Shown: piece after piece, positions 123-64,000 of the stretch | Position numbering within the stretch: the first letter of the stretch is position 1 | Layout of the letters: each line of letters starts with the position of its first letter | DNA from: Styela clava | Taxonomy: Eukaryota | Assembly: GCF_964204865.1 (NCBI RefSeq) | Contig: NC_135261.1 | Location: forward strand, 620,001-684,000 | DNA length: 64,000 nt | Direction: 5' to 3' | The notes under the pieces: model-generated | The model's database searches: none | What the model saw: only the letters and a program-made list of their open reading frames with translations | Told to the model about the DNA's origin: nothing | Program-made: the position numbers and the translations under genes

Positions 123-377
123 AAGCCTGACCCACTGCCCTGCACCCTCTCAACCTCCCTCCCGGTTTCCTATCCTCAAACCACCACCCTATCTCCCTCC
201 CGTTTCCCTATCCCCGACCGCATACCTATCTCCCTCAGTCCTCCTGTCTTCGACCCACTGTTCTAACTCCCTTGCCTTCCTATCCTAGACACTATAACCT
301 GTCTTCCTTCCCTCGACGCTAGCCACATCACGCTGACCTCCCCTGACCCTTACGCTATCGACTCAATTTTACGCACG
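123..377 (-). repeat. G-rich dispersed repeat, copy 1 (inverted relative to copies 2 and 3)
   Basis: Reverse complement (CGTGCGTAAAATTGAGTCGA...GGAAGACAGGTTATAGTGTC...CAGTGGGTCG...GGGTGCAGGGCAGTGGGTCAGGCTT) aligns with 5079-5276 and with 13899-14135 plus 24501-24601. Confidence 0.85.
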
Positions 378-596
378 TCCTGATCGTCATATTCAACCCT
401 CCTTGTTTCCGAATACCTGCCAGGCTTTATACAGATCAAGCATGCCAATGATATTATTGAAGAATACGTCGAAGACAGGTTGACAGTTAATGCAGGCTTA
501 TATGCCTGGAATCTCAAATCGTGATTGCCATAATTGGTAGCTCAGAAATGGGCAACTTTATCCAATCTCAACTTTGCGTAATCTCGAGTATTTCTT

Positions 597-636
597 ATCG
601 CTTCTCGGCCTTTTGGCTAAGATCAAGTGTAGTATC
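597..636 (+). ncRNA. U2: U2 snRNA 5' fragment (nt 1-40), truncated at the retrotransposon junction
   Basis: ATCGCTTCTCGGCCTTTTGGCTAAGATCAAGTGTAGTATC matches the conserved metazoan U2 5' end, including the branch-point-pairing GTAGTA. The rest of U2 (TGTTCTTATCAG...) was not seen in the window. Confidence 0.95.
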
Positions 637-755
637 AGTAGTAGGTCGTATGCTAGCTAGACCTGAGTATCGATCTTCGGCTCTTCGGCTAAGATCAAGC
701 CTTAGGAACAAGTTATAGTTGGAATTACAAGATAGTCTAAATACCTTTGGATATT

Positions 756-1973
756 ATGGCCTACGCAAAAGTCGCCGCTATACCCCCAGTAATGACCACA
801 CCAAGTAATAACAGACCGCGATCTCTGATGATCGAGACGGATGACAACATAAATTTTGAAGGACTGCTTGGAGTTTTAAAAACAACACCCGATGTCAACC
901 AGTACTACAATGAAATAAAAGGATTATTTGAAGTGAGAAGAGGTCTCTGGACAATATCCTTTAAACCTACATCAAACGAAACGTCTAGTTGCAGGGATGA
1001 GTTCCTAAGCGCAACCGGTGGCAAGTTGAATTCAATGTATGGGCCTATCCACTTCATGCTACCCGCAGGTACACCGACAAGAATTTCAATCAAAGGCATA
1101 CCCGATGAAACACCGTTTGCGAGGGCCGCGGCAATCATAAACAATCTAGAATGCGGCAAAATTAAAAACGCAATGAAAAACTGGCACAAAGGCACGGAAA
1201 TATATAACGGTTATACCGCTTTTTTCATCACAGACTTTAACAAGGATAAACTACCGGACTATATCATATTCGATGGAATAAGATGCAAAACGTATCTCCC
1301 GCAAGAGTTATACACTCCGACATGCGGCAGGTGTTTACAACAGGGCCATACATTCGTCGCATGTCAGAATACACCGGTATGTAGATACTGCAAAGAGGAA
1401 GGACACCTCGTAAAACAATGCAAAAAACGTATCGACCGACACAATCAGGAAGAACCAACCGCTTGGAACATATCTAAAAGAACCGCTAATACTAACAACA
1501 AAACAGGGATAAATACAAACCGTCACAACGTACCACAACTTAATGCAGGCATGTGCCTTTCGCCGCTATCCTCAACATTGCTAAGAGAAGAGGCAAACAC
1601 AAACAGCAAACCACAAACCGAAGAGGAGAGCACACAAGCAATAAGCGATAACGAAACCTCCTCAAACTGCGAAAACGATGACTTAAACGACGAAACAAAA
1701 GATTGGTCTCTGAGCAGAGACGACTCCCAGTTAGAGAAACCGTTGGACATACCGAGAACACCTAGAAGAAAGTTAAAACCAACTTCAACAATCGGACAGA
1801 CCCCCATAGTACATGAAATGACAAGACAATCGTACGTAAAAGGAATGGTTAGAGGATACGAATCCATCGACTCTTCCTCGTTTTCTGATACGTGGATTAA
1901 TAACTCGGCCCCCGCTCATTTGGGAAACAGTGACTACAATCCAATTGGACAAGCCAGTAGCCAAGAGGATTGA
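756..1973 (+). CDS. Tx1-type ORF1p (nucleic-acid binding, two CCHC zinc knuckles)
   Basis: MAYAKVAA start; CGRCLQQGHTFVAC and CRYCKEEGHLVKQC knuckles; low-complexity C-terminus; homologous to ORF1 of elements 2 and 3. Confidence 0.9.
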   Translation: MAYAKVAAIPPVMTTPSNNRPRSLMIETDDNINFEGLLGVLKTTPDVNQYYNEIKGLFEVRRGLWTISFKPTSNETSSCRDEFLSATGGKLNSMYGPIHFMLPAGTPTRISIKGIPDETPFARAAAIINNLECGKIKNAMKNWHKGTEIYNGYTAFFITDFNKDKLPDYIIFDGIRCKTYLPQELYTPTCGRCLQQGHTFVACQNTPVCRYCKEEGHLVKQCKKRIDRHNQEEPTAWNISKRTANTNNKTGINTNRHNVPQLNAGMCLSPLSSTLLREEANTNSKPQTEEESTQAISDNETSSNCENDDLNDETKDWSLSRDDSQLEKPLDIPRTPRRKLKPTSTIGQTPIVHEMTRQSYVKGMVRGYESIDSSSFSDTWINNSAPAHLGNSDYNPIGQASSQED

Positions 1974-4830
1974 TAGAATTTATAACTCCCGCGAAATCGA
2001 CCCCTTAATTACATACGTAGGACATGCCGTGAACACCGTAGCCGATCACGCTCTATGCCCATATATTAAACTCAGAGTTTTGAAAAATATAAGATGGGGT
2101 CGGGGGATGTGGCGGAACAGTATCTCTCTATACAAAGAAAAAGATTACTTGGAAATTATAAAAAATACATATAATAGGGCCTTGATAAACATTGAAAGTT
2201 TCGAATCTTTACTAGATTGGTGGGACAACTTTAAACTAAACACCAAAAAACAAACTATAGCATACTCAATAAAAAAAGCAAAAGAAGACAATATAACTGA
2301 ACAATTAATAAGACAAAACATTGCGAATACAGTGGCCAACAAGAATAGTACAGACGTAAGAAAACTGGAAAGACTTAGGGTACAGTTAAAAAACTTGATT
2401 GACAACAAAGCCAATTATAAAACAATCCTGGCGGGCATAGAAGATCAAGAAGAAGGAGAAGAACCAACGAAGTACTTCTATGATGGGATCAAAACACGCG
2501 CAAAACAAACATCGATGGATTCTATCCAAAATTTAAACGGGAAGACAGTTACAAGTGAAAACGAAGTAACTAAGGCGGTAGAGGATTTCTATAACGAGCT
2601 ATGGGGCATGAAGTGTAAAATAGACGAATCTCACCAGCACCACTATATCAATCAAATGAGCGCCACACAACTCAGCCAAGATCAAAACGAAGAGATAGAA
2701 AAACCCACAAACGAGGACGAGATATTTTCTATTATAAAAGATATGAAAAATAATAAATCCCCCGGCCTTGATGGGCTAAACAAAGAATCCTATACAACAT
2801 TTTGGCACATGATAAAAGGAAAATTGACGAATATGATTAATATTATCCTGAGCTTCGGCGCTCTACCGCAAAGCTCACACTATGCCAGAGTGAAATTGAT
2901 ATTTAAAAAGGGAAACAAAAATCTACTAAAAAATTGGCGACCGATCTCGAATCTCAACTTTGACTACAAACTGGTTGCAAGGCTTTTAACCAAAAGACTA
3001 GAATCTCCACTCAACACATTGGTAAGCCAACAGCAAAAGAGTACCTTACCTGGACGAAGTATATTTGATGCCCATTACAACCTAGAAGCGGTTGTCCGCT
3101 ACTGTCAAACCAAGCAAATTCCAGGATATTTAGTAATGATCGACAACTTGAAAGCGTTCGACAGAATAGACCATAACTTCCTATTTAAAGTATTACACGA
3201 AATCGGCCTCAGCCCCAAAATAACCAATATCGTCAAAAACATGTACGAAGAAATTTACAAGTACATAGATATTAACGGTAAAATGAGCTCCCCAATCAAA
3301 ATCAATAGGGGAATTCGACAAGGATGCCCATTGAGCATGTTGTTATACATTCTAAACGCAGAACCACCAATTAGATCAGTACAACGAAATTCCGACATAC
3401 ATGGCATCAAACTTGGAAAATTCACACATAAACTGGACCAATTTGCCGATGACGCCACCTACGCAGTGAGAGATATAACTTCCATTCAACAAATCTTCTT
3501 TGAATTACAAAAATACGAAAAAGCAGCAGGACAAAAAATTAATATAGATAAAACCCAGATATTGAGTCTCACAACTGACGCAGCACAACGTCTCCGGAAA
3601 TCCAACTATAATACCCACCGTAAAGATACATCAAAAATCTTGGGGATATATTATGGATTAGGGCGGGAAACAATAACATGGGACGAAACACTTGTCAAAA
3701 TAACCAGAAAATTAAACTTTTTAAAAACACGAAAACTCACCTGGATTGGAAAACTAACAGTAATAAATTCCCTGATCATGTCACTAATAATATATCACGC
3801 GAGATTTGTAGAAATACCGCCAGTATATCTCAACAAGGTACAACACCTAGTTGCTAAATACCTATGGTTCCCCGAGGGAATGGAGGCGATAAAGAGAACC
3901 ACGCTACAACGCCCATGGTTAGAAGGCGGCATAAATATGCCCAATATCAAAATTAAAATTTCAGCATGTATAGCAGAGCGAATAAAAATACTAAGCAATA
4001 TCGATACACCTTACCTTTTTTGGCATCAGGAAGCAGTCTATGCTTTAGGATCCAAAATCATAAAAAACAACCCAAGCTTATATACAAATTCTACCCCACA
4101 TCTCCCCTTCGTCCCCAAAATCTGGCAAAAATATTTGGATACAACAAAGGGAATACATCTTACCAAACAACAGTGGGCTGGCATGAAGCACAAAGACATA
4201 TACAGAAATCTCCTGTACAACCTAAAAACTGAGTCTCCATACCCAACGGGAATAGATTGGACTTGCGTTCACGTAAAGCAAAGAACTCTGAAACATAAAA
4301 CAACAAACAAAGAGAAGATATGTTCGTACAGAATAGTGGCTGATGGGTACATCTTTGGGAATAAAGCGCGGAAAAGATCTATGTTTAGCGATGCGCACGG
4401 CCAAAGAAAACTGCTAAAATGCAAATTCTGTGGAAGCCGTGAAGACAATACCCTACACATTTTCTTACACTGCTCTTACATTTCACGACACCTTTCCAAA
4501 ACCACGGGCATATTGAACAGGACCCTTAAAATACCAGTACAAATATCTAAAGAAAATATCTTCTACAACTCTTACACCATGCCCAACCAGACAGTTCAGA
4601 CCATAAAACTATTTTTAATATTCAAATTAGCAATAATCAACTTCAAAATCAAGTTAGATATAGAAAATAGAACAGTCGATCCGAGCGAGGACAAAATTAT
4701 CCCCAAAACAACTCGAAAATGGTCCGATTTTATCAACCAACTTGACAAAAAATTTCCCAAGGTATACACATCCAATTTGAAACCTAATTGGAAAGAAATA
4801 CTTGCTGGGTACGAACAACAAAATAACTAG
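1930..4830 (+). CDS. Tx1/L1 ORF2p lacking most of the APE endonuclease (RT plus C-terminal zinc finger open)
   Basis: Only the APE C-terminal RIDRIY...ADH remains. RT motifs KSPGLDG, NWRPIS, KAFDRIDH, GIRQGCPLS, FADD; C-terminal CKFC...HIFLHC. Confidence 0.9.
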   Translation: MTTIQLDKPVAKRIDRIYNSREIDPLITYVGHAVNTVADHALCPYIKLRVLKNIRWGRGMWRNSISLYKEKDYLEIIKNTYNRALINIESFESLLDWWDNFKLNTKKQTIAYSIKKAKEDNITEQLIRQNIANTVANKNSTDVRKLERLRVQLKNLIDNKANYKTILAGIEDQEEGEEPTKYFYDGIKTRAKQTSMDSIQNLNGKTVTSENEVTKAVEDFYNELWGMKCKIDESHQHHYINQMSATQLSQDQNEEIEKPTNEDEIFSIIKDMKNNKSPGLDGLNKESYTTFWHMIKGKLTNMINIILSFGALPQSSHYARVKLIFKKGNKNLLKNWRPISNLNFDYKLVARLLTKRLESPLNTLVSQQQKSTLPGRSIFDAHYNLEAVVRYCQTKQIPGYLVMIDNLKAFDRIDHNFLFKVLHEIGLSPKITNIVKNMYEEIYKYIDINGKMSSPIKINRGIRQGCPLSMLLYILNAEPPIRSVQRNSDIHGIKLGKFTHKLDQFADDATYAVRDITSIQQIFFELQKYEKAAGQKINIDKTQILSLTTDAAQRLRKSNYNTHRKDTSKILGIYYGLGRETITWDETLVKITRKLNFLKTRKLTWIGKLTVINSLIMSLIIYHARFVEIPPVYLNKVQHLVAKYLWFPEGMEAIKRTTLQRPWLEGGINMPNIKIKISACIAERIKILSNIDTPYLFWHQEAVYALGSKIIKNNPSLYTNSTPHLPFVPKIWQKYLDTTKGIHLTKQQWAGMKHKDIYRNLLYNLKTESPYPTGIDWTCVHVKQRTLKHKTTNKEKICSYRIVADGYIFGNKARKRSMFSDAHGQRKLLKCKFCGSREDNTLHIFLHCSYISRHLSKTTGILNRTLKIPVQISKENIFYNSYTMPNQTVQTIKLFLIFKLAIINFKIKLDIENRTVDPSEDKIIPKTTRKWSDFINQLDKKFPKVYTSNLKPNWKEILAGYEQQNN

Positions 4831-4926
4831 AAAACCAGATCCTAACAACAATAAATGTAATGAACCTTTTATCTATGCCACCCACAAATGGTAGCATACT
4901 CCTGAGAATACCATCAAACAACCCAA

Positions 4927-5064
4927 CGGAAGTGATGAGTGGATGTCATCTGACCGCCGCATATGCGGCAATGTGATTGCGAGGATTAATACCGATACGA
5001 CTCGGGTATGACGTGTTATTATATGTAACACTGATCCGAGGCAGACCATACATACTCTGATCCG
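4927..5064 (+). ncRNA. Box C/D snoRNA-like structure in the 3' UTR of element 1
   Basis: Terminal stem CGGA(4927)/TCCG(5064); box C GTGATGA 4932-4938; box D CTGA 5057-5060; D' CTGA 4950-4953; hairpin GCCGC-ATAT-GCGGC; C'-like GTGATT; internal K-turn hairpin 5001-5040. Confidence 0.55.
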
Positions 5065-5078
5065 AAAAAAAAAAAAAA

Positions 5079-5276
5079 GTGCGTAAGATTTAAGTGAGTC
5101 GAGTGCGGAAAAGTCAGGGAAGGTCAGCAATATGAGGCTAGCGTCGAGAAAAGGGAGACGGCCCATAGTGCCGAGGATAGGGAGTTAAGGCAGTGGGTCG
5201 AGGATATGGGGAGCTGAGAGAGATAGGGTGTGGGGTCGAGAATAGGGAACCGGAAGGAAGATAGGGTAGTGGTTCG
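5079..5276 (+). repeat. G-rich dispersed repeat, copy 2 (directly after the element 1 poly-A)
   Basis: Roughly 75-80% identical by eye to 13899-14135; internal GTGGGTCGAGGATA(G/T)GG subrepeats. Confidence 0.85.
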
Positions 5277-10087: not shown

Positions 10088-10378
10088 TTTTTTTGTCTTA
10101 ACAAAGTAAGACTACTAACAACCCCAACCACCATAAATGGTAGCCCGATACAAACGCCAAAACCCTCGAAAAAATTTATTTTTTCTCAAGCCCCGATATT
10201 ACCATCTAACATGGCGAAGCTAGCTGGAGGCTCGGATGTAGGTATTGGAGCCGAGAGAGCCCTCCCCGTCGCGAATTTGTACGGGCCTCTCCACCAGCGT
10301 TGAAAGTATAGCAGGAAGCTTTGTATACTTAAGCTAGGAAAAGAATCTATAATTGGATTTATCACCTACCTGGATATT

Positions 10379-11455: not shown

Positions 11456-13891
11456 ATGGCCGACTTGAATATAATTTCCTTGAACGCCAATGGCCTCGAA
11501 CACCATCTAGCGGAAATGATGGCCTTCATAGGGCACGAAAACCCGAGTATCGTGTGCGTCCAAGAGGCTCACCGCCTAAATAAAGACAAAATTACGCATT
11601 GGTCAAATCAGCTAGGTTTCAATGCTTTTTTTAACACCTTGGATAAGGACGAAAAGCACCACGCATCCTTTTGGCAAGGAACTCTGATAATGATCAAGCT
11701 AGAGAACATCTTAACACCGTCCAGTTATACCATACATATTAGGCATCGCTGCGACAGTATTGAAGTTCAGATCGATCAGAAAATCATAAAAATATTTAAT
11801 GTCTAGGCCCCGGCACAAAACGGGCCCCGAAAAACCGAATTCTACGAAAACCTAGTATATATTTTAGCAAATTACTCTGATACAGGAAACTTAATATTAG
11901 CCGGTGACTTTAATATCATTCTGGAACCGATTGATGCACAAAATATCAATAACTTTAAATTACGACCACCCGAAAAAAATTTTCGCCACTTTATACAAGC
12001 CAACAACATTCTGGATACTTTTAAGGACAAATACCCCAATAAACAGATTTTTACTTACAAATTCGGAACTCAGGGACGGAGAATTGATCGGATCTACTTC
12101 TCTTTCGACCTATACAGTACAATCTCAACCATCACCCACACAGTGAATACAGTTTCGGACCACCTGCTCTGCCCTCAAATTAAGCTTAAACAAACAAAGA
12201 AAATCCGCTGGGGTAAAGGAACCTGGCGGAATAACATCACACTCTACGGGGATCAGACTTACATCGAAATAATAAAACATTCATACAATTTGGCCCTTCT
12301 CGAACTAGAAAATAATGACTCAATACTTGATTGGTGGGATAGTACAAAACAAAAAATCAAAAAAGTCACCGTCGCCTTCTCTAAAAATGTCGTAAAAAAT
12401 AAAAAGAACAGGATTACTCAGATACGTGAAATGTTGCATAAACTCATTAATGAAGGAAGAATGGAAAATGTGGTAAAAATCGAAAACCTTAAATCCCAAC
12501 TACTAACGTTGCATGGTGAGCGGAGTGGGCTGGACATACTAATGGCAAATATGAAAGAAATGGAGCAAAATAAAAAACCCACATCCTCCTTCTATGCCAG
12601 AATTAAGAAACGCGCGAAAAATACCACAATAGGGAGTTTAAAAACATCAAATAACGACCTAGTTTCCGACCAAGACGCTATTATGTCCTTAGTTGAAGGC
12701 TTCTATTGCGATCTGTGGGGCAAAGAACAAAAAATAAACAATTACCACCAGCGATACTACTTATCCCTAATGGGCTCGTCCCAAATATCAGAACAAGAAA
12801 ACTGCGTTATGGAGCAACCCGTTAAGAGCGGATAAATCTACAGCGCAATGAAATCACTTAGCAACAATAAATCACCTGGTTTCGATGGACTCAGTAAAGA
12901 ATTTTACATAACCTTTTGGAGCACCATAAAAACTCAACTCACCCAAGTCATCAACAATATCTTCTCATTCGGCCTTTTCCCAAAATCTTGCGCATTAGCT
13001 AAAGTTAAACTTCTGTATAAAAAGAACGACGAGACGGATTTGAAAAGCTGGCGGCCCATATCAACCCTAAATATGGACTATAAAATCATATCTAAAATCG
13101 TAGTAAAAAGATTGGAACCGGTCATATCGAGAATAGTAAGTGCGTCGCAGAAGTGTTCTTTAGCCCAAAGGAGTATACATGACGTCCATTACAACATCGA
13201 TGTGATTGTAAGATACTGTCAACACAAAAACATCCCAGGGACATTGGTCCTGATAGATAACTTAAAGGCATTTGATAACGTCAGTCACACTTTTCTTTTT
13301 AATATCCTGAAACAAATTGGACTGGGAAACAAAATTCATAGTGTAATAAAAAAGTTGTACCAGAACATAGAATCTCAAATTGACGTCAACGGCGAGCTAT
13401 CAAACAAAATCACCATAAAGCGTGGCATAAGGCAGGGATGCCCTCTAAGCATGCTGTTATACGCAATAAGCGTAGAACCTCTGGCAAGATCCGTACAGAT
13501 GAATTCCAACATTCACGGTATAAAACTAGGTGTATGCGAACACAAGCTGGACCAATACGCCGATGATGTCACCTTTGCTATAAGCGACCAACCATCTATA
13601 AATGAAGTATTCAAAGAACTATACCACTTTCAATTGGCGTCAGGACAAAAGATAAATCAAGAAAAAACAGAAATTCTATGTATAACAAAAACCTCCCATA
13701 TTTCAATATTCAACTCTCCATTTAGGCAATATATTAAACAGGATGTTAAACTACTGGGAGTACATTTCGGACGAAAGCCACTAGACAAAATGTGGGATGA
13801 AATTGTGACCAATCTGATTCGAGTAAGACTCGGACATGAAGTGTCTTTTAGACACCGATCCGAAAACTGGAAAAATTCTGATCCGCAATAA
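11456..13891 (+). pseudogene. Element 3 ORF2 (APE plus RT), with stops and C-terminal deletion
   Basis: ISLNANGL, CVQEAH, NV*AP, AGDFN, RIDRIY, SDH, KSPGFDG, GIRQGCPLS, YADD; in-frame stops at 11806 and 12835; homology ends near 13822. Confidence 0.9.
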
Positions 13892-13898
13892 AAAAAAA

Positions 13899-14135
13899 CG
13901 TGCGTGAGATTTTAGTGAGTGGAGTGCCAAAAGTTCAAGAGAGGGCAGCGGGATGAGGCTGGCGCCGAGGAAAGGAAGACAGGTTATAGTGTCGAGAATA
14001 GGAAGGTTGGGGCAGTGGGTCGAGGATATGGGGAGCTGAGAGAAATAGGGTGAGTGGGTCGAGTATAGGAGGAGTGAAGGAGATAGGATGTGGGGTCGAG
14101 GATAGGGAACCGGGAGGAAGATAGGGTAGTGGTTC
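13899..14135 (+). repeat. G-rich dispersed repeat, copy 3, left part (split by Gypsy A)
   Basis: Homologous to 5079-5276; continues at 24501 after the duplicated GGTTC. Confidence 0.85.
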
Positions 14136-14373
14136 TGTAGTGTATTCTGCCTTTAGATCTTTATAAACAAGCACCAAGTTTCCATTACAACTACTTTATT
14201 ATAAGAGTCGAGCACTTCAACATTAAGACACCATAGCAGTAACAGACTAAACAGCAAGTCAGCACTTAACACGTGCACAGATAGAACAAGAATGACAGCC
14301 TCGGATATACAAGGTCAAATCAGTCTGGGTCAATAGCGTCACCTAGCGGTATTACATCATATAATATACAACA
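14136..14373 (-). repeat. Gypsy A 3' LTR (238 bp)
   Basis: Direct repeat of 24261-24500; adjacent polypurine tract on the minus strand. Confidence 0.95.
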
Positions 14374-15534: not shown

Positions 15535-15720
15535 TCTAGTGTAAGATGATATTTATGACGTCATTATTAATGCTATACTTGTCACCTTTGACCTTGCTTG
15601 CTTGCTCTCTCTCTCTGCTTGTGCTGCTAGATGTTGAGTGCTGTGATCTATGATGTCTATGTTATATCTATAATATACTCAAGCATCCTGAATAGTTGTG
15701 TATTTACCCACAAACAAACA

Positions 15721-15739
15721 TGGTGTCAGAATCGGGATT
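15721..15739 (+). promoter_or_regulatory. Primer-binding site of Gypsy B (tRNA-Leu-like)
   Basis: TGGTGTCAGAA directly after the 5' LTR; complementary to the tRNA-Leu 3' end TTCTGACACCA. Confidence 0.8.
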
Positions 15740-15797: not shown

Positions 15798-18217
15798 ATG
15801 GCTGATTCGTCGTTGAACAGACCAGATCCTCTGATTTTTGATGGAAATGTTGCTGAAAACTGGAGAATATTCGTACGTGAATATGATATTTTCATCGGAG
15901 CACTGCACAGTGATAAAACTGACAAAGCTAAAGCTTGCATATTGCTTAATTTGATTGGGAAAGAGGGCAGAGAAAAAGAAGAATCTTTTACATATGAGGC
16001 AGCTGAAGGTGACGTTCCTGCTGAGTCTCGTGATGATCCAGAATGCCTGAAGAGAAAATTTGCAGAAATATGCCTACCCAAGTCAAACATAGGACTAACA
16101 AGACATCACTTCAACACAAGAGCACAGATGCCAGATGAATCTATCCAATCATTCGTTGTAGACTTGAAAAACAAAGCCAAGTCTTGTGAATTTGGTGATC
16201 TCAAAGATGAGTTGATTAAAGACAGAATTTTGACTGGCGTTCATGATGATAACCTGCGAAGGCAATTGCTAAAAGAAGCTAATCTTACATTGAAAAAAGC
16301 TATTGATATATGTGTAATATATGAACTTACAAATGAGAGAATGAAATTCCTATCGATGAATGCAACGAAAGAAGTTGATTCCGTATCTCATCATAGAAGA
16401 AACACACGCTATAGTCCGAAATTTAGACCTAACAAGTTCGAAAAGAACAATAGAACATTTCGTGCAAATAATGACAAATTTTATAAGCCTGATTGTCATT
16501 TTCAGAGTGTGTCTAAATTTAATTCAGCTTGCCAATATTGTGGTTTAAATCATACTAAATCACGTGATTCTTGTCCAGCATTTGGCAAGAAATGTAATTT
16601 TTGGCACAAAATGAATCATTTTCAAAGAATGTGCTTTATTAAACGTGGTCAATCAAAAGAATGTCATAGATCTTCATATGATGTTCATGGCAATCAAAAC
16701 CAGACCCCAGTTCATGAGATTAATGACCTGTATAATGCTGATTATTTTTATGTTGGTTCATTTGATTGTGTCAATTCAGTTAAGACTACTGGTCCTGATG
16801 AAGCTTTTGCTGGTTTATATGTGAATAACAACCATGTCAAACTCAAAATTGATACTGGTGCTAAGTGTAATGTCCTACCATTGCATATTTTCAATTGTGT
16901 CAGATCTGATGAAAAGATTGACAAGAGAAATCCTGCATTTTTGATTGGTTATGGGTCTAGTAATAGAATTCCTACAATTGGATCTGTTGTTATAAAATGT
17001 ATTTTCCGTAATGTCCCATATTTGCTTAAATTTCAAGTTGTTGATAGAAATGTCACACCTATTCTTGGAATTAATGATTGTTTAAATTTGAATGTTCTTT
17101 CTTTGAATGTGCATGAGTTGAAACCCCAAAGTGTTCCCTCTGTACTTTCGCCCGAGTCCGTTCAAAAATATGTTGAAAATAAGTTTTCTGATCTATTTGA
17201 TGGTAAGCTAGGTGAATTGCCTATTACTTATCACATGAAACTTCGATCTGATGCACAGCCAGTGATCAGACCTCCCAGAAAAGTTCCTGTTGCAATGCAG
17301 AAACTTGTGAAACAAGAATTAGATAAAATGGTTGCCAATCAGATTATTTTACCAGTTGACGAACCAACTGAATGGGTGTCAAGCATGGTAGTCACAAAGA
17401 AAAAATCTGGTGCCATTCGTATTTGTTTAGATCCTACTTTATTGAATACATATATTTTACGTGAGCATTATCCAATGAGAAATATTGAAGATATTGTTGC
17501 CACAATGCCCAATGCTAAATATTTTGCTGTATTAGATGCATCTTCTGGTTTTTGGCAGATTAAGCTTGATCATGAATCCTCACTGAAAACTACCTTTAAC
17601 TCACCTGTTGGTAGATTTCGTTTTTTGCGTATGCCATTTGGAATTTCGTCTTGCCCAGAAGTGTTTCAGAAGGCTATTGATCAACTTTTTGATAAGCTAC
17701 CCTGTCGTATTGTTGTTGATGACATTCTAATTTGGGGCTCGACTGAGAAAGAATTATTTGATCGTATTTTGCTTATACTTGAAAGAGCTAGAGAAGTCAA
17801 TTTGAAATTGAATTTGTCCAAATGTAAGTTTATGACACAAGAAGTTGAATATTGTGGTCATATTTTGACTTCGAATGGTTTAAAACCATCTCCTCGAATT
17901 ACCCAAGCTATTCGTGATATGCCAGAGCCTACTGATAAACATTCTTTGCATCGATTTATTGGAATGATTACTTACCTTGCTAAATTTTTGCCGAAATTGA
18001 GTGAACATACTGCTAATTTACGATTATTGCTTAGAAATGATGTTGAATGGTATTGGAATGAAAATGAACGTAATGATTTTAATATGCTCAAAATTATGCT
18101 TTCTAATATGCCAATTTTGAAATTTTATGATTGTAACAAAAGTGTAACTTTAACATGTGATGCATCCCAGAAAGGGTTGGGAGCTGCTTGTTTACAAGAT
18201 AATGTACCCATTGCTTA
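15798..18217 (+). CDS. Gypsy B gag-pol, 5' part (gag, protease, RT, start of RNase H)
   Basis: Zinc knuckles, KIDTGA protease motif, LDASSGFWQ, VVDD, CDASQKGLGA; frame continues at 19203 once the mariner element is removed. Confidence 0.93.
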
Positions 18218-19200
<983 letters not shown>

Positions 19201-19202
19201 TA

Positions 19203-20871: not shown

Positions 20872-21189
20872 ATATTGCATTTTGTAGCTTTGCTGATTGA
20901 TGACAAATTGTTGTAAATGAGATTTGAACTTTCCAGTTGGCATTGCTATTATGTGCATTAGTGTTGTATTTCATGTGTTGATATTTGTTTAAAGAAAAGG
21001 GGATGTAAGATGATATTTATGACGTCATTATTAATGCTATACTTGTCACCTTTGACCTTGCTTGCTTGCTCTCTCTCTCTGCTTGTGCTGCTAGATGTTG
21101 AGTGCTGTGATCTATGATGTCTATGTTATATCTATAATATACTCAAGCATCCTGAATAGTTGTGTATTTACCCACAAACAAACATCTAG

Positions 21190-24260: not shown

Positions 24261-24500
24261 TGTAGTGTATTCTGCCTTTAGATCTTTATAAACAAGCACC
24301 AAGTTTCCATTACAACACTACTTTATTATAAGAGTCGAGCACTTCAACATTAAGACACCATAGCAGTAACAGACTAAACAGCAAGTCAGCACTTAACACG
24401 TGCACAGATAGAACAAGAATGACAGCCTCGGATATACAAGGTCAACTCAGTCTGGGTCAATAGCGTCACCTAGCGGTATTACATCATATAATATACAACA
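24261..24500 (-). repeat. Gypsy A 5' LTR (240 bp)
   Basis: Direct repeat of 14136-14373. Confidence 0.95.
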
Positions 24501-24601
24501 GGTTCGATGGTAGGAGGCCGGGGATAGGAAACCGGGACAAGGGTTGAGAGATATGGGTAGAGGGTATAGGAAGGCAGGGTGCAGGGCAATGGGTCAGGCT
24601 T
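24501..24601 (+). repeat. G-rich dispersed repeat, copy 3, right part
   Basis: GGGATAGGAAACCGGGA..GGTTGAGAG..GGGTGCAGGGCAATGGGTCAGGCTT matches the reverse complement of 123-180. Confidence 0.8.
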
Positions 24602-36000: not shown

Positions 36001-39000
36001 TCGTGTAGCCGCATGTAGGGTTAGTTGAAGACTCAAAATCACATGTAAGATCGACTGAAAAATACAAAAGAACTTTTTTAGAGACAGAGCCATTCTTGTC
36101 TAAACCGAATATTATTTTACTGTGAACAGGGCTGTAAAGTCAGATCAAATTATCAATCGACATCGGGTTGAAACAATTTTAACTCTGTCTCAGCTTTTAA
36201 GTCCAGAGATAAATAAATGTCGAAATGTCAGAATGTCAATGGTTACAAGTCAAGATTATCAATAATAATTCATAAACAAGTCTAATTAGGAAAACTCGCA
36301 GAAGTTGGACTTGAGCGCAAATTTCTTTTGAATAAGAGTCAGATTTTGATTAGGAGTTAGCTAAGCTTTGAATATAAGCTTTTCGTATTCATCACACGGC
36401 AGAGGGAAGTCAATGAGACGGTTCAATCCAATCCCACCAGTGGTCTCATTACCAGTCCATTGTGGATTTATAAATAGGTAACTAGTTATTTGTTTCAGTT
36501 AATTTTTGGATGGCATAGTCAGGTGGGGGTTAGGATTGACATATGCAAAAATCGTTTTGATACACCCACTAGAACTACCTGGCGTACGAAACTACACGAG
36601 GCACCAACCACCGATCACCCTGGAGTTTGGAAAATTATCCTCGAATACACAGCGCTTTGTCAACACTTACCTACGCAAGTGGGCACCTCACCCCAGGTTC
36701 CATTTTTGTCGCATTTTCCTATATTTGATCCTTGAAGAACGTATCCAGCATTGCATGAATATTCGATAGTCTGATTAACCTCTAAGGCAGGTGCGGTCGT
36801 AGTGTCTACAGTCCCGTTGTCTGGAGCTTTAGGGGCTGGGCAGGTAAGTACTGTAACTGAACATTGAAACAGTTATAAGTTGCAGACCAAACTTTTCAAC
36901 AAATTTGCCAAATTCTGATTTCATAATTATTTCCACCTCCTTAACCTCGAATAAAAAACAAACAAACAAGGATTTAGAGCCTGGATGGTCAAAACTACAA
37001 CCCGTTACAACCTTTTGTGCGGTCGATCAGCTCTTGATTTTTTGATGATGTAATCAGGTGGGGGTCAGGAATAATGTTACGCCACACCCACCAGAAGTTA
37101 TTCAGATAAGAAACTACAAGAGACCCAGAGTATCAATGTTTTATCATTTACGGTTCAGTCACCATTAAATTCGACACTATCATAGTGAATGGGAATAGTA
37201 ATTGTGAAGTCACATATATAGAACATAAAGTCCAAAAAAAAAAATTCCACTGTGCGGAAAAAAGGGAAATTCCCCCCAATTTAGGGAAAAAAGTTTTGAA
37301 ATTGTCAATTTAACTGAGTTAAAGCGTAATTTTGGTAGGAAATAATTTTTTCTCATCCAATTCATTAATGCAATGTACTTGTTGGACATAATAAAACAGG
37401 TATCAAAATTTAAAAAAATTCCACCTTGCGGAAAGTAGGAAATATCCCCCCACTTTATCGAAGAAAACGTCAAGTTAAGTGAGTTAAAGCGTAATTAGGG
37501 TGGGAAATAAATTTTTCTCATCGAAATCATTAAAACAGTATATTTGACGGACATATACTAAACACATACTAAAATTTGAAAACCTTAAATTCCACCTTGC
37601 GGAAAGTAGGGAAATTCCCCCTATCTTAGGAATAAATTTACGAAATTGTCAATTTAACCAAGTTAACGCGTAATTTTAGTAAGAATTAATTATTTGTCAT
37701 CCAACTCATTAATACAACCGAATACAATCTCCCATACTAATACAACCAAATACATTTCCCCTCTTAATACAACCAAACATAATCCCTGTCGTAGTACAAT
37801 CAAATACCCAATTCCCATCTTAATACAACCAAACATTGTCCCATATTATTACAACCAAACAACTTTTTTCCAACTTAATACAACTAAATACAACCAAGAA
37901 CCCATTCCGATCTTAATAAAACCAAATATATTTTCTCTTCTCAATACAACCAAATATCCCTATTCCCTTCCTAATACAACTAAACATACTACTTTCTTAC
38001 TACAACCAAATACATTTTCTCTTCTCAATACAACCAAACATATCTCCTTTCTTAATACATTCAAATACCATCTCCCGTCTTAATACAACCAAATACCCTC
38101 TCCTGTCTTTGATGCAACAAAATAGCCTCTTCCGTCTTAATACATCCAAATACCATCTCCCGTCTCAATACAACCAAATACCCTCTCATGTCTTAATACA
38201 ACCAAGTATACTCCTATCTTAATATAACCAAAGACCATCTCCCTTTTTAATACAACCAAAAATCCTCCCATCTTAATACAACCTAAACCATCTCATCTTA
38301 ATACAACCAGAAACCATCAATCTTAATACAATCAAGTACCCTCCAAGATTATTACAACCGAACACCATCTCCCTTCCTAATACAACCATATTCCCATATC
38401 ATATTATTACAACCAAATGTCCCAATTTCCGTCTTAATACAACCAAACATCACTATTCCCCTATTAATGCAACCAAAAACTATCTCCCGTCTTAAAACAA
38501 CCCAATACCCTCTCTCGTCTTAATACAATCAAATACCCTCTTCTTTCTTAATACAACCAAAAACCTTCTCCCTTCTTAATACAAACAAACACCCATACCA
38601 TCTTAATACAACCAAATTCCCCAATTCCCCTATTAATACAACCAAAACTATCTCACTTCCTAATACAATCAAATACCCTCTCCTTTCTTAATACATCCAA
38701 GCATACTCCTATCTTAATATAACCAAAGACCATCTCCCTTCTTAATACAACCAAACCTACTCCCTTAATACAACCAAACAACTCCCGCCCTAATACAACC
38801 AAAAACTATCTCCCGTCTTAATACAACCAAAAATTTCCCATCTTAATACAACCAAAAATTCTCGCTTCTTAATACAACCAAAACCTCTACACATCTTAAT
38901 ACAACCAAATAACCTCTGACGTCTTAATACAACCAAACAGCCTCTCCCGTCCTAATACAATCAAAAATACTCCTATCTTAATACAACCAAACCCTGCCAA

Positions 39001-42000
39001 TCTTAATACAACCGAACATCCTCTTCCTATTTTAATACAACCAAGTATACTTCCGTCTTAATACAACCAAAAATATCTTCCCGTCTTAATACAACCAAAT
39101 ACATCTTCCCGTCTTAATACAACCAAAAAATATCTCCCGTCTTAATACAACCAAATACATCTTCCCGTCTTAATACAACCAAAAACTATCTCCCGTCTTA
39201 ATACAACCAGATGATCTCTCCCGTCTCAATACAACCAAAAACATCTTCCCTTCTTAATACAATCAAAAATACTCCTATCTTAATACAACCAAAAATACAA
39301 CCGAACATCCTCTTCCTATTTTAATACAACCAAATATACTTATACCGTCTTAATACAAGCAGTACCCCCAAGATTAATACAACAAAACGCCTTCTCCCTT
39401 CTTAATACAACCAAAAACCCATACCGTCTTAATACAACCAAATTCCCCAATTCCCCTATTAATACAACCAAAACTATCTCACTTCCTAATACAATCAAAT
39501 ACCCTCTCCTTTCTTAATACAGCCAAATAGCATCTCCCGTCTTAATACATCCAAGCATACTCCTATCTTAATACAACCAAAAACCCTCCCTTAATACAAC
39601 CAAACAACTCCCGCCTTAATACAACCAAAAACTTCCCATCTTAATACAACCAAATAACCTCTGACGTCTTAATACAACCAAACTGTCCTCCCGTCTTAAT
39701 ACAACCAAACATTATCACATCTTAATACAACCAAATACATCTCCTTTCTTAATACAGCCAAATACCATCTCCCGTCTTAATACAACCAAAGATATTTTCT
39801 TTTCTTAATACAACCAAAAACTTCGCTTCTTAAGACAACCAAACCCTCTACACATCTTAATACAACCAAAAACTTCCCATCTTAATACAACCAAATAACC
39901 TCTGACGTCTTAATACAACCAAATAACCTCTGACGTCTTAATACAACCAAACAGCCTCTCCCGTCCAAATACAATCAAAAATACTCCTATCTTAATACAA
40001 CCAAACCCTGCCAATCTTAATACAACCGAACATCCTCTTCCTATTTTAATACAACCAAATATACTTCCGTCTTAATACAACCAAATATATCTTCCCGTCT
40101 TAATACAACCAAAAACTATCTCCCGTCTTAATACAACCAGATGATCTCTCCCGTCTCAATACAACCAAATACATCTTCCCTTCTTAATACAATCAAAAAT
40201 ACTCCTATCTTATTACAACCAAACACTTCCAATCTTAATACAACCGAACATCCTCTTCCTATTTTAATACAACCAAATATACTTCCGTCTTAATACAAGC
40301 AAATACATCTTCCCGTCTTAATACAACCAAGTACCCCCAAGATTAATACAACAAAACGCCTTCTCCCTTCTTAATACAACCAAAAACCCATACCGTCTTA
40401 ATACAACCAAATGCCCCAATTCCCCTATTAATACAACCAAAACTATCTCACTTCCTAATACAATCAAATACCCTCTCCTTTCTTAATACAACCAAAAACC
40501 TTCTCCCTTCTTAATACAAACAAACACCCATACCATCTTAATACAACCAAATTCCCCAATTCCCCTATTAATACAACCAAAACTATCTCACTTCCTAATA
40601 CAATCAAATACCCTCTCCTTTCTTAATACATCCAAGCATACTCCTATCTTAATATAACCAAAGACCATCTCCCTTCTTAATACAACCAAAAACCCTCCCT
40701 TAATACAACCAAACAACTCCCGCCTTAATACAACCAAATACTATCTCCCGTCTTAATACAACCAAAAATTTCCCATCTTAATACAACCAAAAATTCTCGC
40801 TTCTTAATACAACCAAAACCTCTACACATCTTAATACAACCAAATAACCTCTGACGTCTTAATACAATCAAATAACCTATGACGTCTTAATACAACCAAA
40901 CAGCCTCTCCCGTCCTAATACAATCAAAAATACTCCTATCTTAATACAACCAAACCCTGCCAATCTTAATACAACCGAACATCCTCTTCCTATTTTAATA
41001 CAACCAAATATACTTCCGTCTTAATACAACCAAATATATCTTCCCGTCTTAATACAACCAAATACATCTTCCCGTCTTAATACAACTAAAAACTATCTCC
41101 CGTCTTAATACAACCAGATGATCTTTCCCTTCTTAATACAACCAAAAATACAACCGAACATCCTCTTCCTATTTTAATACAACCAAATATACTTCCGTCT
41201 TAATACAAGCAAATACATCTTCCCGTCTTAATACAACCAAGTACCCCCAAGATTAATACAACAAAACGCCTTCTCCCTTCTTAATACAACCAAAAACCCA
41301 TACCGTCTTAATACAACCAAATGCCCCAATTCCCCTATTAATACAACCAAAACTATCTCACTTCCTAATACAATCAAATACCCTCTCCTTTCTTAATACA
41401 GCCAAATAGCATCTCCCGTCTTAATACAATCAAGCATACTCCTATCTTAATATAACCAAAGACCATCTCCCTTCTTAATACAACCAAACCTACTCCCGTC
41501 TTAATACAACCAAATACATCTTCCCGTCTTATCACAACCAATAACCCCACTTCCTTCTTAATACAACTAACAATACTCCCTTCTTAATACAACCAAACAT
41601 TCTCCCATCTTAATACAACCAAGTACCCTCCAAACTTAAGACAACCAAACTTTATCTCCCGTCTTGATACAACCAAAAACCCATACCGTCCTAATACAAC
41701 CAAATGTCCCAATTTCCTTTTTAATACAACCAATTTTCCCTATTCCCTTCCTAATACAACTAAACATACTCCTTTCTTAATACAACCAAATACATTTTCT
41801 CTTCTTAATACAACCAAAAATTGTCTCCCGTCTTAATACAACCATATACCCTCTCCCGTCTAATACAACCAAATACATTTTCTCTTCTTAATACAACCAA
41901 ATATCCTCTTCCCCTCCTAATACAACCAAATACATCCCCTGTCGTAGTACAATCAAATACCCAATTCCCATCTTAATACAACCAAACGTTGCCCCCTATT

Positions 42001-45000
42001 ATTACAACCAAATAACTTCTTCCCATCTTAATACAACTAAATATCCATACCGTCCTAATACAACCAAGAACCCATTTCGATCTTAATACAACCAAATACT
42101 CCACACATCTTAATACAAACATCCACTCCCCATCTCAATACAACCAAATAGCCTCCCATCCTAATACAACCAAAGACCTCCCCATCTCAATACAACCAAA
42201 GATCCATTCCCATCTTAATACAACCAAATATCTTCCCGTCTTAATAAAACCCAACTTCCACACATTTTAATACAACCAAAAACTTCCTATCTTAATACAA
42301 CCAAAGATGTTCCCATCTTAATAGAATTCCCCCCAAGATAAGGAAAAAATTTACGAAATCGTCAATTGAACTCAGTTTAAGCCTAATTTATGCAAGAAAT
42401 ATTTTTTTCTTTTAGGGGAGAAATATTTTTCGAGTAAAACACGAGAAAGAAAAGGCCACACCAACCTGTACTCTGTTCGACTTTGGTAGTTTGTGGGCGA
42501 AAAGTAGATAGAAAGGCTTCCTTAGTTGACCACGGGGATGTGGCAGGGACGATTGAAGTAAGAGCCGAAGAAGTTTTCTTGACTTTGTTACCTGTGTGAA
42601 AAAGTGAGTTTATATTACAAATTTATAACAATGTATATAGTTAGGTGACTTTAAGATAAGAATAAGACACTGTTGGCAGCGTTTTTGCACAATCCCTTAT
42701 TACCAATTACTATAACTGAATGAGACTTTTTTAATATCCAGTGCATGCAATACCAAAAGACATAGATTTCCATACCCTGAGGAGTGGTCGTTTCTTTGAC
42801 ATCTACAACAAAGTTCGTCTCTGCTTCTTCCATCACCTTTTCCAATTGATTGAGCTCACTTTTCATCCCGTCTAATCGTTCCGTTAAGGCTGCGAAACAT
42901 AAACAAAAACAGAATTTAAGCAGAGCCCTCAGTTTTACAATATGTCGCACAACCTGAATCCTAACCGGTACACTTATATACTAAGTTCAGGTTGCGTGAC
43001 ATTTTAGTGCACATACTTTTGAAGCTCTGAATTTTTGTTAGAAGAGATGAACCCCTTTTTCTGGTTAAAATAAGAAATATGAGATAGGTATTGCTAAACT
43101 ACACGTCATGATTTGATTGTTAAAAATGGCGCGATAAAAATATAAAATGATTGAAATTTTCTAATAAAACGATGGTACCCTAGGTACTTCTGAAGTATGC
43201 GTACCAAGATGGCGGACATCGGAACGTAGTATGTGTACCAGGTTGGGGTTGGGCCATAATTTTTTGTAATTTACTTACGAGTTCGGTGTCTAGCCGAATG
43301 ACCCCCGTAGTATTTGTTACTTAAATTATGGCTTTACCCCAACCTGGTACACACACTACGTTCCGGTGTCCACCATCTTTGTACGCATACTTCAGGAGTA
43401 CCAATACGATTATTTGCTATCAGACCGATTGACAAATATGAAAAATAGAAAACCCATTTTGAAGGGAATTATATTGTGGACACGAACCTTCCAAAGCTTT
43501 CTCTTCTTCTTTTGTGCACTGTCCTTCCTGAAATAGAACAAGAGAGAAATGTTTAAATATATGGACATGAAGGTTGCACATCCATGCAGTAAGGCCTTAG
43601 CTTAGCAAGTGTTCCCCGTGAAAAAGTGTTCCCATAGATTAAAGTGAAATACCACCAATATGAAACTACTACTAAAGCTCTCACCGTAAGTTCTCTCCAA
43701 GTAGGTTGATCGTCGCAAATCATAGGAATCCAGCATTCCTCTCCTGTTAGAAAAAAAAAAAAATTAGAAATCGAGTTAATTGTTCATTTTAAAATAGGTT
43801 TTTTAACATATAAACGAAAGTTATGTCACTGAACTTTTTTTATAGAGAGACTATTTTAGTACCTATTTCCTTATGGCGCGCATTCGCTTATTCCATATTT
43901 AATTTTATACTGCTACCTACGTCATGCGAACGCACTATTTTCCTCGATGATGATTGGTCGAATCAAATTCAAATTTCACGCCCGCCGTTGAGGAACCTAA
44001 TAATGTTCATCGAACGTGCGCCATATGCAAAGATTTGATTCATACCGTCGGTTTCTAAGAATCGTTCCAATTTTTCTGGCGAACAATAAACTCGCGAAAG
44101 TTCTCCATAGTTTGATGCTTCCTTTATACACCTTTATAACCGAATTCGGCATTTCTACACCCTGGGTGAGGTGATGGGTATAAAATGGAACGCGAGTTTT
44201 TACCCTGCGATGCTAAAATATCCAACAGGATGCTGAGTCCAACGCTTTACCAATGGGCCAGCACACCCGCTAATCTATGAGCGATTTTTCACTTCTGAAC
44301 ATTTGAGTGTATTTGGCGATATTTATTTAGGATTTAGCTTTAAAAACCAAAACATTTTGAATGAGGAAGTTCTCTCATTGGAGATTTCAAAACAAAAATC
44401 TTTTTACAATGAAGGAAGGGCCATTTAGTAAGATCCACGGTCAGGGTGAAATTCAGACGACAAGAGGCCCTAGGCTGCTGAGTTTTCGAGAGTCCTCTTA
44501 AACAATAACGTCATAAAAAAAAATACATTATGACGTCATAAATAAATTACATGGTATTTTAGCTACTGGCAGCATGCCAATTGCACAAGTAGATTAAGAA
44601 ATTGTGTCGTAATAAAACGCCATGAGACCAGAGTACAATTTTTTGAATTTATACAAATTTGTTAGTCTACTATTTTTAATTTTCGAGACGGTGGGTATTT
44701 GAGACGATAATTTATTTGATTAATATCAGCTTCATAAAATTCTGAATTGGTTTTATTCTATAACAATCTTTTACAATTCAAAAGGGACTTGAAACCGAAT
44801 AATTGTACAAAATTGAATGCCGAGGCCCCAAGACTTGGCCTATTTTGCCCGGTAAACTCAGCCCTGTTTACAGTACAGCAACGCATCAAATACGAGACAA
44901 AATTAACGAGGTATTCGAGGGGGAAATCTATCAGATAAAAAATTATTATTTTCAAAATTCAAATTTTGGTTCAACTTTCATCGAGAGACCGAGGTTCGTC

Positions 45001-63500: not shown

Positions 63501-64000
63501 TAACATAATTGGAATTAAAAATATATTTTGCGGCAAATATGACTCAACACTCGCCAGGGTGTTTGAAATTTCAGGGGGTGTTCACCCCTTATTGGAGAGA
63601 TGTGGGGAAATCACTGTACTCCGCCAGACATTGAACAGCTAGTTGTATAAAGGCAGCCGTCCCTTCAAATAAATATAATGAAATAATTTGTAATTTCTTT
63701 TTCAATAAATGAGCACTAATGGGTGTTTTGGATTAAAGTTGTGCTAAAGATTTAATTACCGCTGCTATAAAGTGATATAGGTGGGCTCTGGTTAGATTAC
63801 CCTTGTAATTCCTACAGAAATATTGTTCGCGTGTGCTTGATACATGGGTGGGCCAATTATGGCCCGCGGGCCATCGAAGTGTTTCATCCGGCCCACTTGT
63901 GTCTGCTTAAATAACGACTATAGTTTTTATGGATTTAAATTTGTAAATATGTGTAATTAGCCCACTCGGAAAAGTAATTGCCCACCCTTGGACGTCAGCC
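48540..64000. repeat. Complex tandem array of MITE/SINE-derived subunits with a 7510-bp higher-order duplication
   Basis: Identical spurious ORFs recur at an exact +7510 offset (51378/58888, 53437/60947, 53886/61396, 54336/61846, 55647/63157); ~0.7-1.5 kb subunits recur many times. Confidence 0.95.

Follow-up and report, generated by a model that had tools for sequence, protein, structure and literature searches.

The window, a 64,000-nucleotide stretch of the Styela clava genome, carries near its start a LINE retrotransposon (element 1) read on the plus strand. The element begins with nucleotides 1-40 of U2 snRNA (597-636, plus; Rfam U2, 48.1 bits), and a second, degenerate copy of the U2 5' end lies near 674-699 on the same strand. 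ORF1 (741-1973, plus, first ATG near 756) encodes a zinc knuckle matching PF00098 with an E-value of 6e-4, just under the cut-off. The overlapping ORF2 (1840-4830, plus) covers the reverse transcriptase (RT) and a C-terminal region (RVT_1, E 1e-29). Compared with L120, L121 and L124, this copy lacks about 0.9 kb near 1961, inside the APE endonuclease region; the intact ORF2 of L121 combines Exo_endo_phos and RVT_1. A zinc-knuckle ORF1 and an ORF2 with APE and RT are those of Tx1 clade LINEs, and the putative Tx1 label rests on this architecture and on target habits, not on a tree with named Tx1 references, none of which occurred among the 120 matches listed. In the assembly (377 Mb, 380 contigs), the 3' end of element 1 was found in seven near-identical copies and in two more at 81-83% identity.

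The U2 sequence had been taken in the original prediction as the sign of a U2-associated family whose RNP would be routed towards snRNA genes. This part was not supported: the 1-40 segment is a carried 5' head with no U2 3' flank. The same head also starts four other copies, whose flanks are unrelated and lie outside any U2 gene, U2 is the 3' flank of none of the seven near-identical copies, and no poly(A)-U2 3' junction occurs in the assembly, where unassembled U2 arrays could hide a master copy. Because the head recurs in unrelated surroundings and no U2 lies 3' of the poly(A), nucleotides 1-40 are not regarded as the target site. Recurrent snRNA-derived 5' heads, including some on elements of other families, were seen in L285 near 480-560 (minus strand), L083, L286 and the window (597-699), the forms being U2 1-40 with a degenerate repeat, U2 to about nucleotide 50, U2 2-35, and a U2+U1 composite. 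Such U2/U1 heads are as described, in the available portion of PMC4494074, for crocodilian SINEU and Tx1-associated elements. Insertions were observed in tRNA genes (L084, L085, L291), in histone genes (L020, L233-L235, L288, L289) and in other tails (L124, L082, L265), and target preference appears to differ between families. Dense tandem arrays are located at C4 23.3-23.5 Mb, C5 7.9 Mb and C8 7.6-7.9 Mb.

The 3' end of element 1 had been predicted to be built like a box C/D snoRNA, and every motif of that layout was found in place on the plus strand. A closing stem strand CGGA (4927-4930) precedes box C GTGATGA (4932-4938), then come a CTGA proposed as box D' (4950-4953), a GC hairpin (4956-4969) and the C'-like word TGTGATT (4972-4978). 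Box D CTGA, or CUGA in RNA (5057-5060), is followed by the 3' stem strand TCCG/UCCG (5061-5064) and, immediately 3' of the stem, by a poly(A) tail of 14 residues (5065-5078). As RNA, positions 4927-4938 (CGGA-AGTGATGA) would form the 5' strand of a terminal K-turn, made of the CGGA stem, the bulge AGU and box C GUGAUGA. All the sequence hallmarks of a box C/D K-turn are present, namely the C stem, a bulge of three nucleotides with U in last place, G.A/A.G, U.U and G-C, with the 4-bp stem and the 3-nt bulge at K-turn spacing, and boxes C and D are joined by a terminal stem as in box C/D snoRNAs; the nomenclature for standard box C/D spacing follows PMC5579392. Dinucleotide shuffles of 4831-5064, scored for box C, box D in the last 14 nt, a 4-bp stem and the same spacing, reproduced the layout in only 2 out of 20,000 cases, so that shuffled sequences rarely match as well as the real end.

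The Rfam scan suggested along with the original prediction gave no gathering-level match for the tail. Three C/D family matches were returned for 4800-5150, all of them weak (13.8-14.5 bits, E 4.4-7.7), and scans of four tail regions produced nothing at gathering level, SNORD10 and U13/snoR105 included. An identity with snoR105/108 was discarded, the weak match being built on shared box words and TACGAC where most relatives read TATGAC. A SECIS reading was likewise rejected: helix length is a criterion for SECIS elements, and the tail has similar core words but too short a helix. The fold of the short unit of element 1 is weak (z -1.45), and two type B tails, defined below, score -0.57 and -1.89.

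Further conserved parts were recognized in the 3' UTR of element 1. A second CTGATCCG, absent from the original prediction, is found at 5031-5038 and supplies the 3' side of an internal hairpin of K-turn type (5001-5040, plus; CUCGGG-UAU-GA-C-GUGUUA / UAACAC-U-GA-UCCGAG) that is sustained by covariation. The strand with the bulge is the 5' one, an arrangement also seen in the genome's own U4 5' stem-loop. Upstream of the unit, comparison of sequences and folding point to a conserved hairpin (4875-4897, plus) whose loop is of the CAYAAAT type and whose stem differs between families. A PSE-like reading of this upstream CACCATAA hairpin was dropped because the spacing varies from about 29 to 66 nt and the stem covaries. 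The conserved motif ATACCATC (4908-4915, plus) lies about 7-12 nt 5' of the stem; no antisense match to it was found in 18S, the ITS-5.8S-28S stretch, U2, U4 or U6. The segment holding the proposed guide, D', hairpin and C' (4944-4978, plus) is subfamily-specific and looks like a longer interior that has been shortened.

Two other elements of the window retain parts of such an end. The 3' UTR of element 2 (10127-10206, plus) contains the upstream hairpin and TTACCATC and is interrupted before box C. Element 3 had been said to share the ending of element 1: CTGATCCG is indeed present at 13878-13885, before CAAT-A9, but the tail is 5'-truncated and without box C. This partial tail (13830-13898, plus) comprises a variant of the internal K-turn, box D, the stem and A9, and abuts RT sequence directly. 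Elements 1 and 3 share their end point within a repeat that has internal units of 38-39 nt; copies of this repeat occur at 123-378 (minus), 5079-5274 and 13898-14135 + 24501-24601. One copy is split by an LTR element with an LTR-like pair at 14136-14373 and 24261-24500 (98.8% identical). The latter element holds a nested second LTR element (15540-15721 / 21004-21185) whose pol is interrupted by a pair of 300-bp inverted repeats (18216-18515 / 18903-19202, 98%), probably a DNA-transposon insertion. A satellite array made of 161 copies of a 28-bp unit and a tandem duplication of 7.5 kb (97.7% identity) occupy 37887-42305 and 49583-64000.

Within this genome, from which all of the evidence on the module is drawn, the putative C/D-ended 3' module is a clade-wide trait. 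Many APE-RT LINE families and their ORF1-only partners have it at the end of the 3' UTR, with a length of about 130-480 nt (interiors of 130 to 476 nt). The pattern ATACCATC-N13-20-TGATGA has 257 genome matches against 12 for controls, and CTGATCCG-N0-12-A8 has 153 forward matches against 3 (the reverse count being inflated by overlaps, the forward count was used); from these two numbers the copy number is put at a few hundred. The last 90 nt of element 1 gave 41 matches at many other loci from 40 scored of 78 candidates. These loci belong to other LINE families with tails of 330-337 nt. Among 21 long-tail loci ranked by the last 90 nt, 20 start with CGGA-NN-TGATGA about 335 nt upstream, the remaining one being 5'-truncated. 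The 40 fetched sites of the anchor pattern consisted of 29 tails and 11 unrelated sequences; CTGA stands at box D in 24 of the 29, even though the pattern made no demand for box D. A SINE reading of the long tails was abandoned because these tails follow ORF2 or ORF1.

Two further sets were blind to the tail or to part of it. A search with the C-terminal protein of ORF2 yielded 150 matches, of which 50 were examined: the 30 best and another 20 chosen for their position, long ORFs for the most part. Boxes C and D were present at 32 of the resulting 49 distinct loci; eight loci have another tail, and nine are interrupted, truncated or devoid of a recognizable tail. In a box-C-blind set of 20 sites with box D and poly(A), nine reach the start of the module and all nine read xGGA-NN-TGA, box C being TGATGA in three, TGATGT in two, TGAAGA in two, TGACGA in one and TGACAA in one. 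The ORF1-only carriers with a type B tail (L079, L080, L085, L090, L091, L098, L099, L102, L106 and L108) are non-autonomous elements similar to HAL1.

Tailed families form a single RT clade (96/93), more than one substitution per site deep, in a tree from which 12 redundant or long-branch rows and short RT fragments were left out. This clade also takes in P0002, the nearest ORF2 from outside the genome (48-55% identity). Of 80 more distant metagenome relatives (25-38% identity), 39 were examined, and the C/D tail occurs in none of the 36 with downstream DNA. Tail identity reaches 0.70-0.91 where the identity of ORF2 DNA is 0.51-0.65. Tails thus appear to be exchanged between families, and the copies of the module are therefore not independent. 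The exchange looks to be helped by the insertion of elements into one another's tails, as in L124 (duplication of about 55 bp), L082, L228 and L265. A nested sub-lineage (95/93) has replaced the module altogether with a different tail ending in two GTAAGTA words, so the C/D tail is not essential to this ORF2. The replacement tail was observed at L252-L256, L260, L269 and L270 (C4 23.3-23.47 Mb, C8 4.2-4.5 Mb and C6 19.55 Mb) as a conserved 3' UTR of 600 nt without a match in Rfam. It contains a pyrimidine tract and a GC-rich stem with CCACTAGAGGG, presumably a CTCF-like motif (absent in L253), then a T-run and CAG resembling a 3' splice site, two GTAAGTA resembling U1/5' splice sites, and poly(A).

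Boxes C and D had been predicted to be conserved across the family, and they are kept in divergent families while the interiors vary. Two interior types were mainly compared: type A, found in element 1 and in the long tails, and type B, 140-149 nt in length. Their identity does not exceed that of shuffles in any of six pairs (0.52 versus 0.52 in one example), yet both types have the two boxes, the stem and an internal motif that is homologous between them. In 54 distinct tails, picked by a pattern that requires a box-C-like word, CGGA is found in 48, TCCG in 52 and RTGATGA in 52; the first two bases of the bulge take six forms, and its U is fixed, partly as a result of the selection pattern. 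Box C has decayed in some subfamilies (TGATGT, TGAAGA, TGACGA). A third interior type (L326) keeps the internal K-turn with quite different stems.

The covariation suggested as a check was observed in the pair flanking the terminal stem and in the internal hairpin. The core stem itself shows no compensatory change because CGGA and TCCG are nearly invariant; no compensated core stem was found, the 11 of 40 motif matches with stems other than CGGA being unrelated sequence. With RNAalifold, the ends of 12 long tails paired unprompted, and the pair outside the stem was G-C in six, A-U in five and G-U in one. Over the 54 tails this outer pair is formed in 44, a 3' C stands opposite a 5' G in 8 of 9, and the changes amount to about three switches on the tail tree; in the subfamily of element 1 the outer (fifth) pair is an unpaired A.A. 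In the internal hairpin, 94.9% of the cells are paired, as against 24-45% in slid registers, and 4 of 12 pairs show double changes. Its covariation score was reached by none of 500 shuffles, a control that ignores the relatedness of the copies and in which 37 of the 500 equal the double-change pair count.

Outside human L1, it is poorly understood how the 3' end of a LINE RNA is defined, how the RNA survives nuclear decay and how it enters the nucleus with ORF2p. On balance, the folded 3' module likely binds host 15.5K/Snu13 and would thereby set and protect the RNA 3' end. Protection by a 15.5K-type protein is plausible because the K-turn is conserved, the interiors vary, the flanking pair covaries and shuffles seldom match. 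We also lean, by analogy, towards a module working like the snoRNP domain of telomerase RNA and not like a methylation guide. The conserved letters of the candidate boxes are those read by 15.5K, the binding of which is the first assembly step at C/D and U4 K-turns (PMC5579392). The proposed mechanism can be summarized as follows. The terminal and internal motifs would fold as K-turns, 15.5K/Snu13 would bind them, and a partial or full C/D RNP with Nop58, Nop56 and fibrillarin would be assembled. Read-through transcripts would then be trimmed 3' to 5' until the RNP halts the exosome, and an A-tailed end would be left over beside box D for use by ORF2p in target-primed reverse transcription. 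According to the accessible part of PMC10557570, snoRNP core proteins block exonucleases, and snoRNAs receive oligo(A) at the 3' end and are trimmed there. The A-run starts 4-21 nt 3' of box D, and AWTAAA is absent from the last 45 nt of all 54 tails; several of the distant relatives have AATAAA directly before poly(A). Against the proposal, the A-tail could simply be copied from the genomic A-run of the parent copy, and a polyadenylation signal would therefore not be needed. A full C/D RNP tends to hold RNA in the nucleus, at odds with the need for translation.

More tentatively, and with doubts prevailing, the LINE clade may, in the manner of telomerase RNAs, have recruited the box C/D snoRNP of the host for maturing its RNA 3' ends, the cassette being traded between families. 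The RNP would in this case stop exosome trimming, replace the polyadenylation signal and keep the template nuclear for integration, while the tail with U1-type sites of the nested lineage may do the same job via another host RNP. In assembled contigs of four runs guessed to be RNA, depths of hundreds to thousands were recorded on the long tails (many copies summed) and of 0-6 on the tail of element 1, similar to its ORF2, although such contigs cannot show level, ends or strand; one of them spans the tail of element 1 into the upstream UTR. In this clade the module is discrete and mutable, the protein predicted to bind it is clearly named (15.5K), and the lineage in which the tail was replaced serves as a natural control. 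If binding holds, a short cassette giving a protected A-tailed end without AAUAAA could serve RNA design.

Several rival explanations were weighed against binding of 15.5K. The tail could be a 2'-O-methylation guide for U6 C77, similar to SNORD10, or for another snRNA or rRNA site. TGTCAT-CTGA does pair with positions 73-78 of the genome's own U6, with C77 as the fifth (the numbering presumably agreeing with the human one), and two long tails reach p 0.02-0.03 against antisense U6. The pairing is nevertheless limited to 6 bp, and both of the closest relatives break it, L008 at the fifth position of the guide and L009 at the fourth. The D'/hairpin/C' arrangement fails as a family module, D' CTGA being limited to the subfamily of element 1 (L001-L009), with ATGA elsewhere, and the C'-like word being already lost in L008. 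Internal boxes in the D'-then-C' order of a guide snoRNA are absent, and the conserved internal motif has the opposite order. Only 3 of 108 antisense alignments of tails with snRNAs fall below p 0.05, as expected by chance. No conserved antisense element of 10-21 nt before D or D' is common to the families when U2, U4, U6, 18S and the 5.2 kb after 18S are searched. The best rRNA matches (one 12-mer and a few 9-10-mers, against a background reaching 10) are family-specific hairpin strands. Colinear antisense blocks to U6 were also considered and rejected, since they are not significant and pair inside the tail. A guide for U6 C77 as a family trait is already refuted, and a guide role of any such kind is exceedingly improbable.

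A different reader of the module could be the element's own ORF2p, or ORF1p, recognizing it for reverse transcription with no host snoRNP assembled, the K-turn geometry serving folding or binding of the element's protein. The same ends are found on ORF1-only elements, tails move between distant ORF2 lineages, and non-autonomous partners are described as having tails in common with their LINE (PMC4494074, in part). The long tails (e.g. L010:1234-1570) fold into long rods with repeated, symmetric facing GGAA/GGAA internal loops (z -6.5 for L010), which need another ligand; these rods are possibly protein-binding repeats or a means of avoiding long perfect dsRNA, and the unit is expanded to 476 nt in L081. 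Recognition by ORF2p leaves unexplained the exact snoRNA consensus RUGAUGA/CUGA with U.U and G-C (52 of the 54 pattern-selected tails for RTGATGA), and the nested lineage works with a different tail. We consider it rather unlikely, but it does not exclude a snoRNP role and, as the main rival, may hold as well. The two ends of the module come together in a terminal stem, a feature of mature C/D RNAs, and the 5' boundary of the module is fixed at CGGA across families, as would suit a stable orphan C/D RNA of 130-480 nt cut out of a retrotransposon acting as host gene. There is however no conserved guide, no intron context was seen, and no free-standing copy without an A-tail was met among 30 + 20 examined of 514 CGGA-NN-TGATGA sites, which makes this improbable. 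A tail without present function, derived from a snoRNA captured once and then passed on by inheritance and by the swapping of tails between nested elements, would profit from the mutual insertions (L124, L082, L228, L265), by which tails would spread passively. This explanation is already disfavoured and very improbable, as boxes, stem and internal K-turn have survived the full replacement of the interior, and the changes in stems are compensatory. Still less probable is that the conserved words work at the DNA level, CGGAAG being an ETS-like promoter site from which the next element of a tandem array is driven. Such arrays exist (C4 23.3-23.5 Mb) and CGGAAGT in the tails resembles, in our estimation, the ETS consensus, but GGAAG in the long tails is strictly strand-biased (89 sense, 0 antisense), the words face each other across hairpin arms, the stems covary, and box D and TCCG are left unexplained.

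The preferred module, a K-turn end predicted to be bound by 15.5K, can be compared with a number of known systems. No source snoRNA is known for it; the platypus snoRTE is reportedly a snoRNA-like sequence mobilised by LINE machinery. With box C/D guide snoRNAs and scaRNAs it shares box C, box D, the terminal stem, K-turn spacing and the size range, but it lacks a conserved guide, a D'/C' pair and an Rfam match, and in its internal K-turn the bulge strand comes first, a nesting similar to that of the U4 5' stem-loop and different from the D'-then-C' order. The predicted module belongs to no guide snoRNA class, to no Rfam family and not to Keno. Like the Tx1-clade Keno, Tx1-Mar and SINEU, as far as described in PMC4494074, the elements combine APE-RT and a zinc-knuckle ORF1 with tails common to non-autonomous partners, insertions in multicopy genes (tRNA, histone) and other elements, and recurrent U1/U2 5' heads. 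Keno has U2 on both flanks, unlike element 1, which is not inserted in U2 genes (0/7 copies with a U2 3' flank), and the term snoRNA has no occurrence in the available text of that paper. In the open-access literature, with Repbase Reports and most subscription journals outside, no precedent was found for a retrotransposon with a C/D or K-turn tail. In sno-lncRNAs and SPA lncRNAs, snoRNA motifs likewise define the end of a longer RNA (PMC12084880 and PMC4288147, in part). The snoRNA of SPAs is however at the 5' end, and sno-lncRNAs are intronic and unpolyadenylated, whereas the LINE unit lies directly 5' of poly(A). In snoRNA retroposons (PMC1687206) and U3/LINE-1 chimeras (PMC13174262), snoRNA-like sequence is similarly moved by LINE machinery, but as far as these sources describe it the snoRNA is a 5' passenger or head, and the LINE module is a 3' tail conserved on autonomous elements. 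The closest parallel is offered by trypanosome telomerase RNA with its C/D domain. Both this domain of the flagellate (Trypanosoma) RNA and the H/ACA domain of vertebrate telomerase RNA employ snoRNA boxes as a 3' biogenesis domain of an RT template and not as a guide, according to the consulted part of PMC4993307, where binding of Nop58 and Snu13 to the flagellate RNA is demonstrated, the LINE module being known from sequence. In contrast to telomerase RNA, the LINE module is part of an mRNA that encodes proteins of a mobile element and has poly(A) at its end, and the module is multicopy and exchanged between families. If binding holds, a selfish reverse transcriptase and telomerase would have converged on the same host RNP for the stability of their templates.
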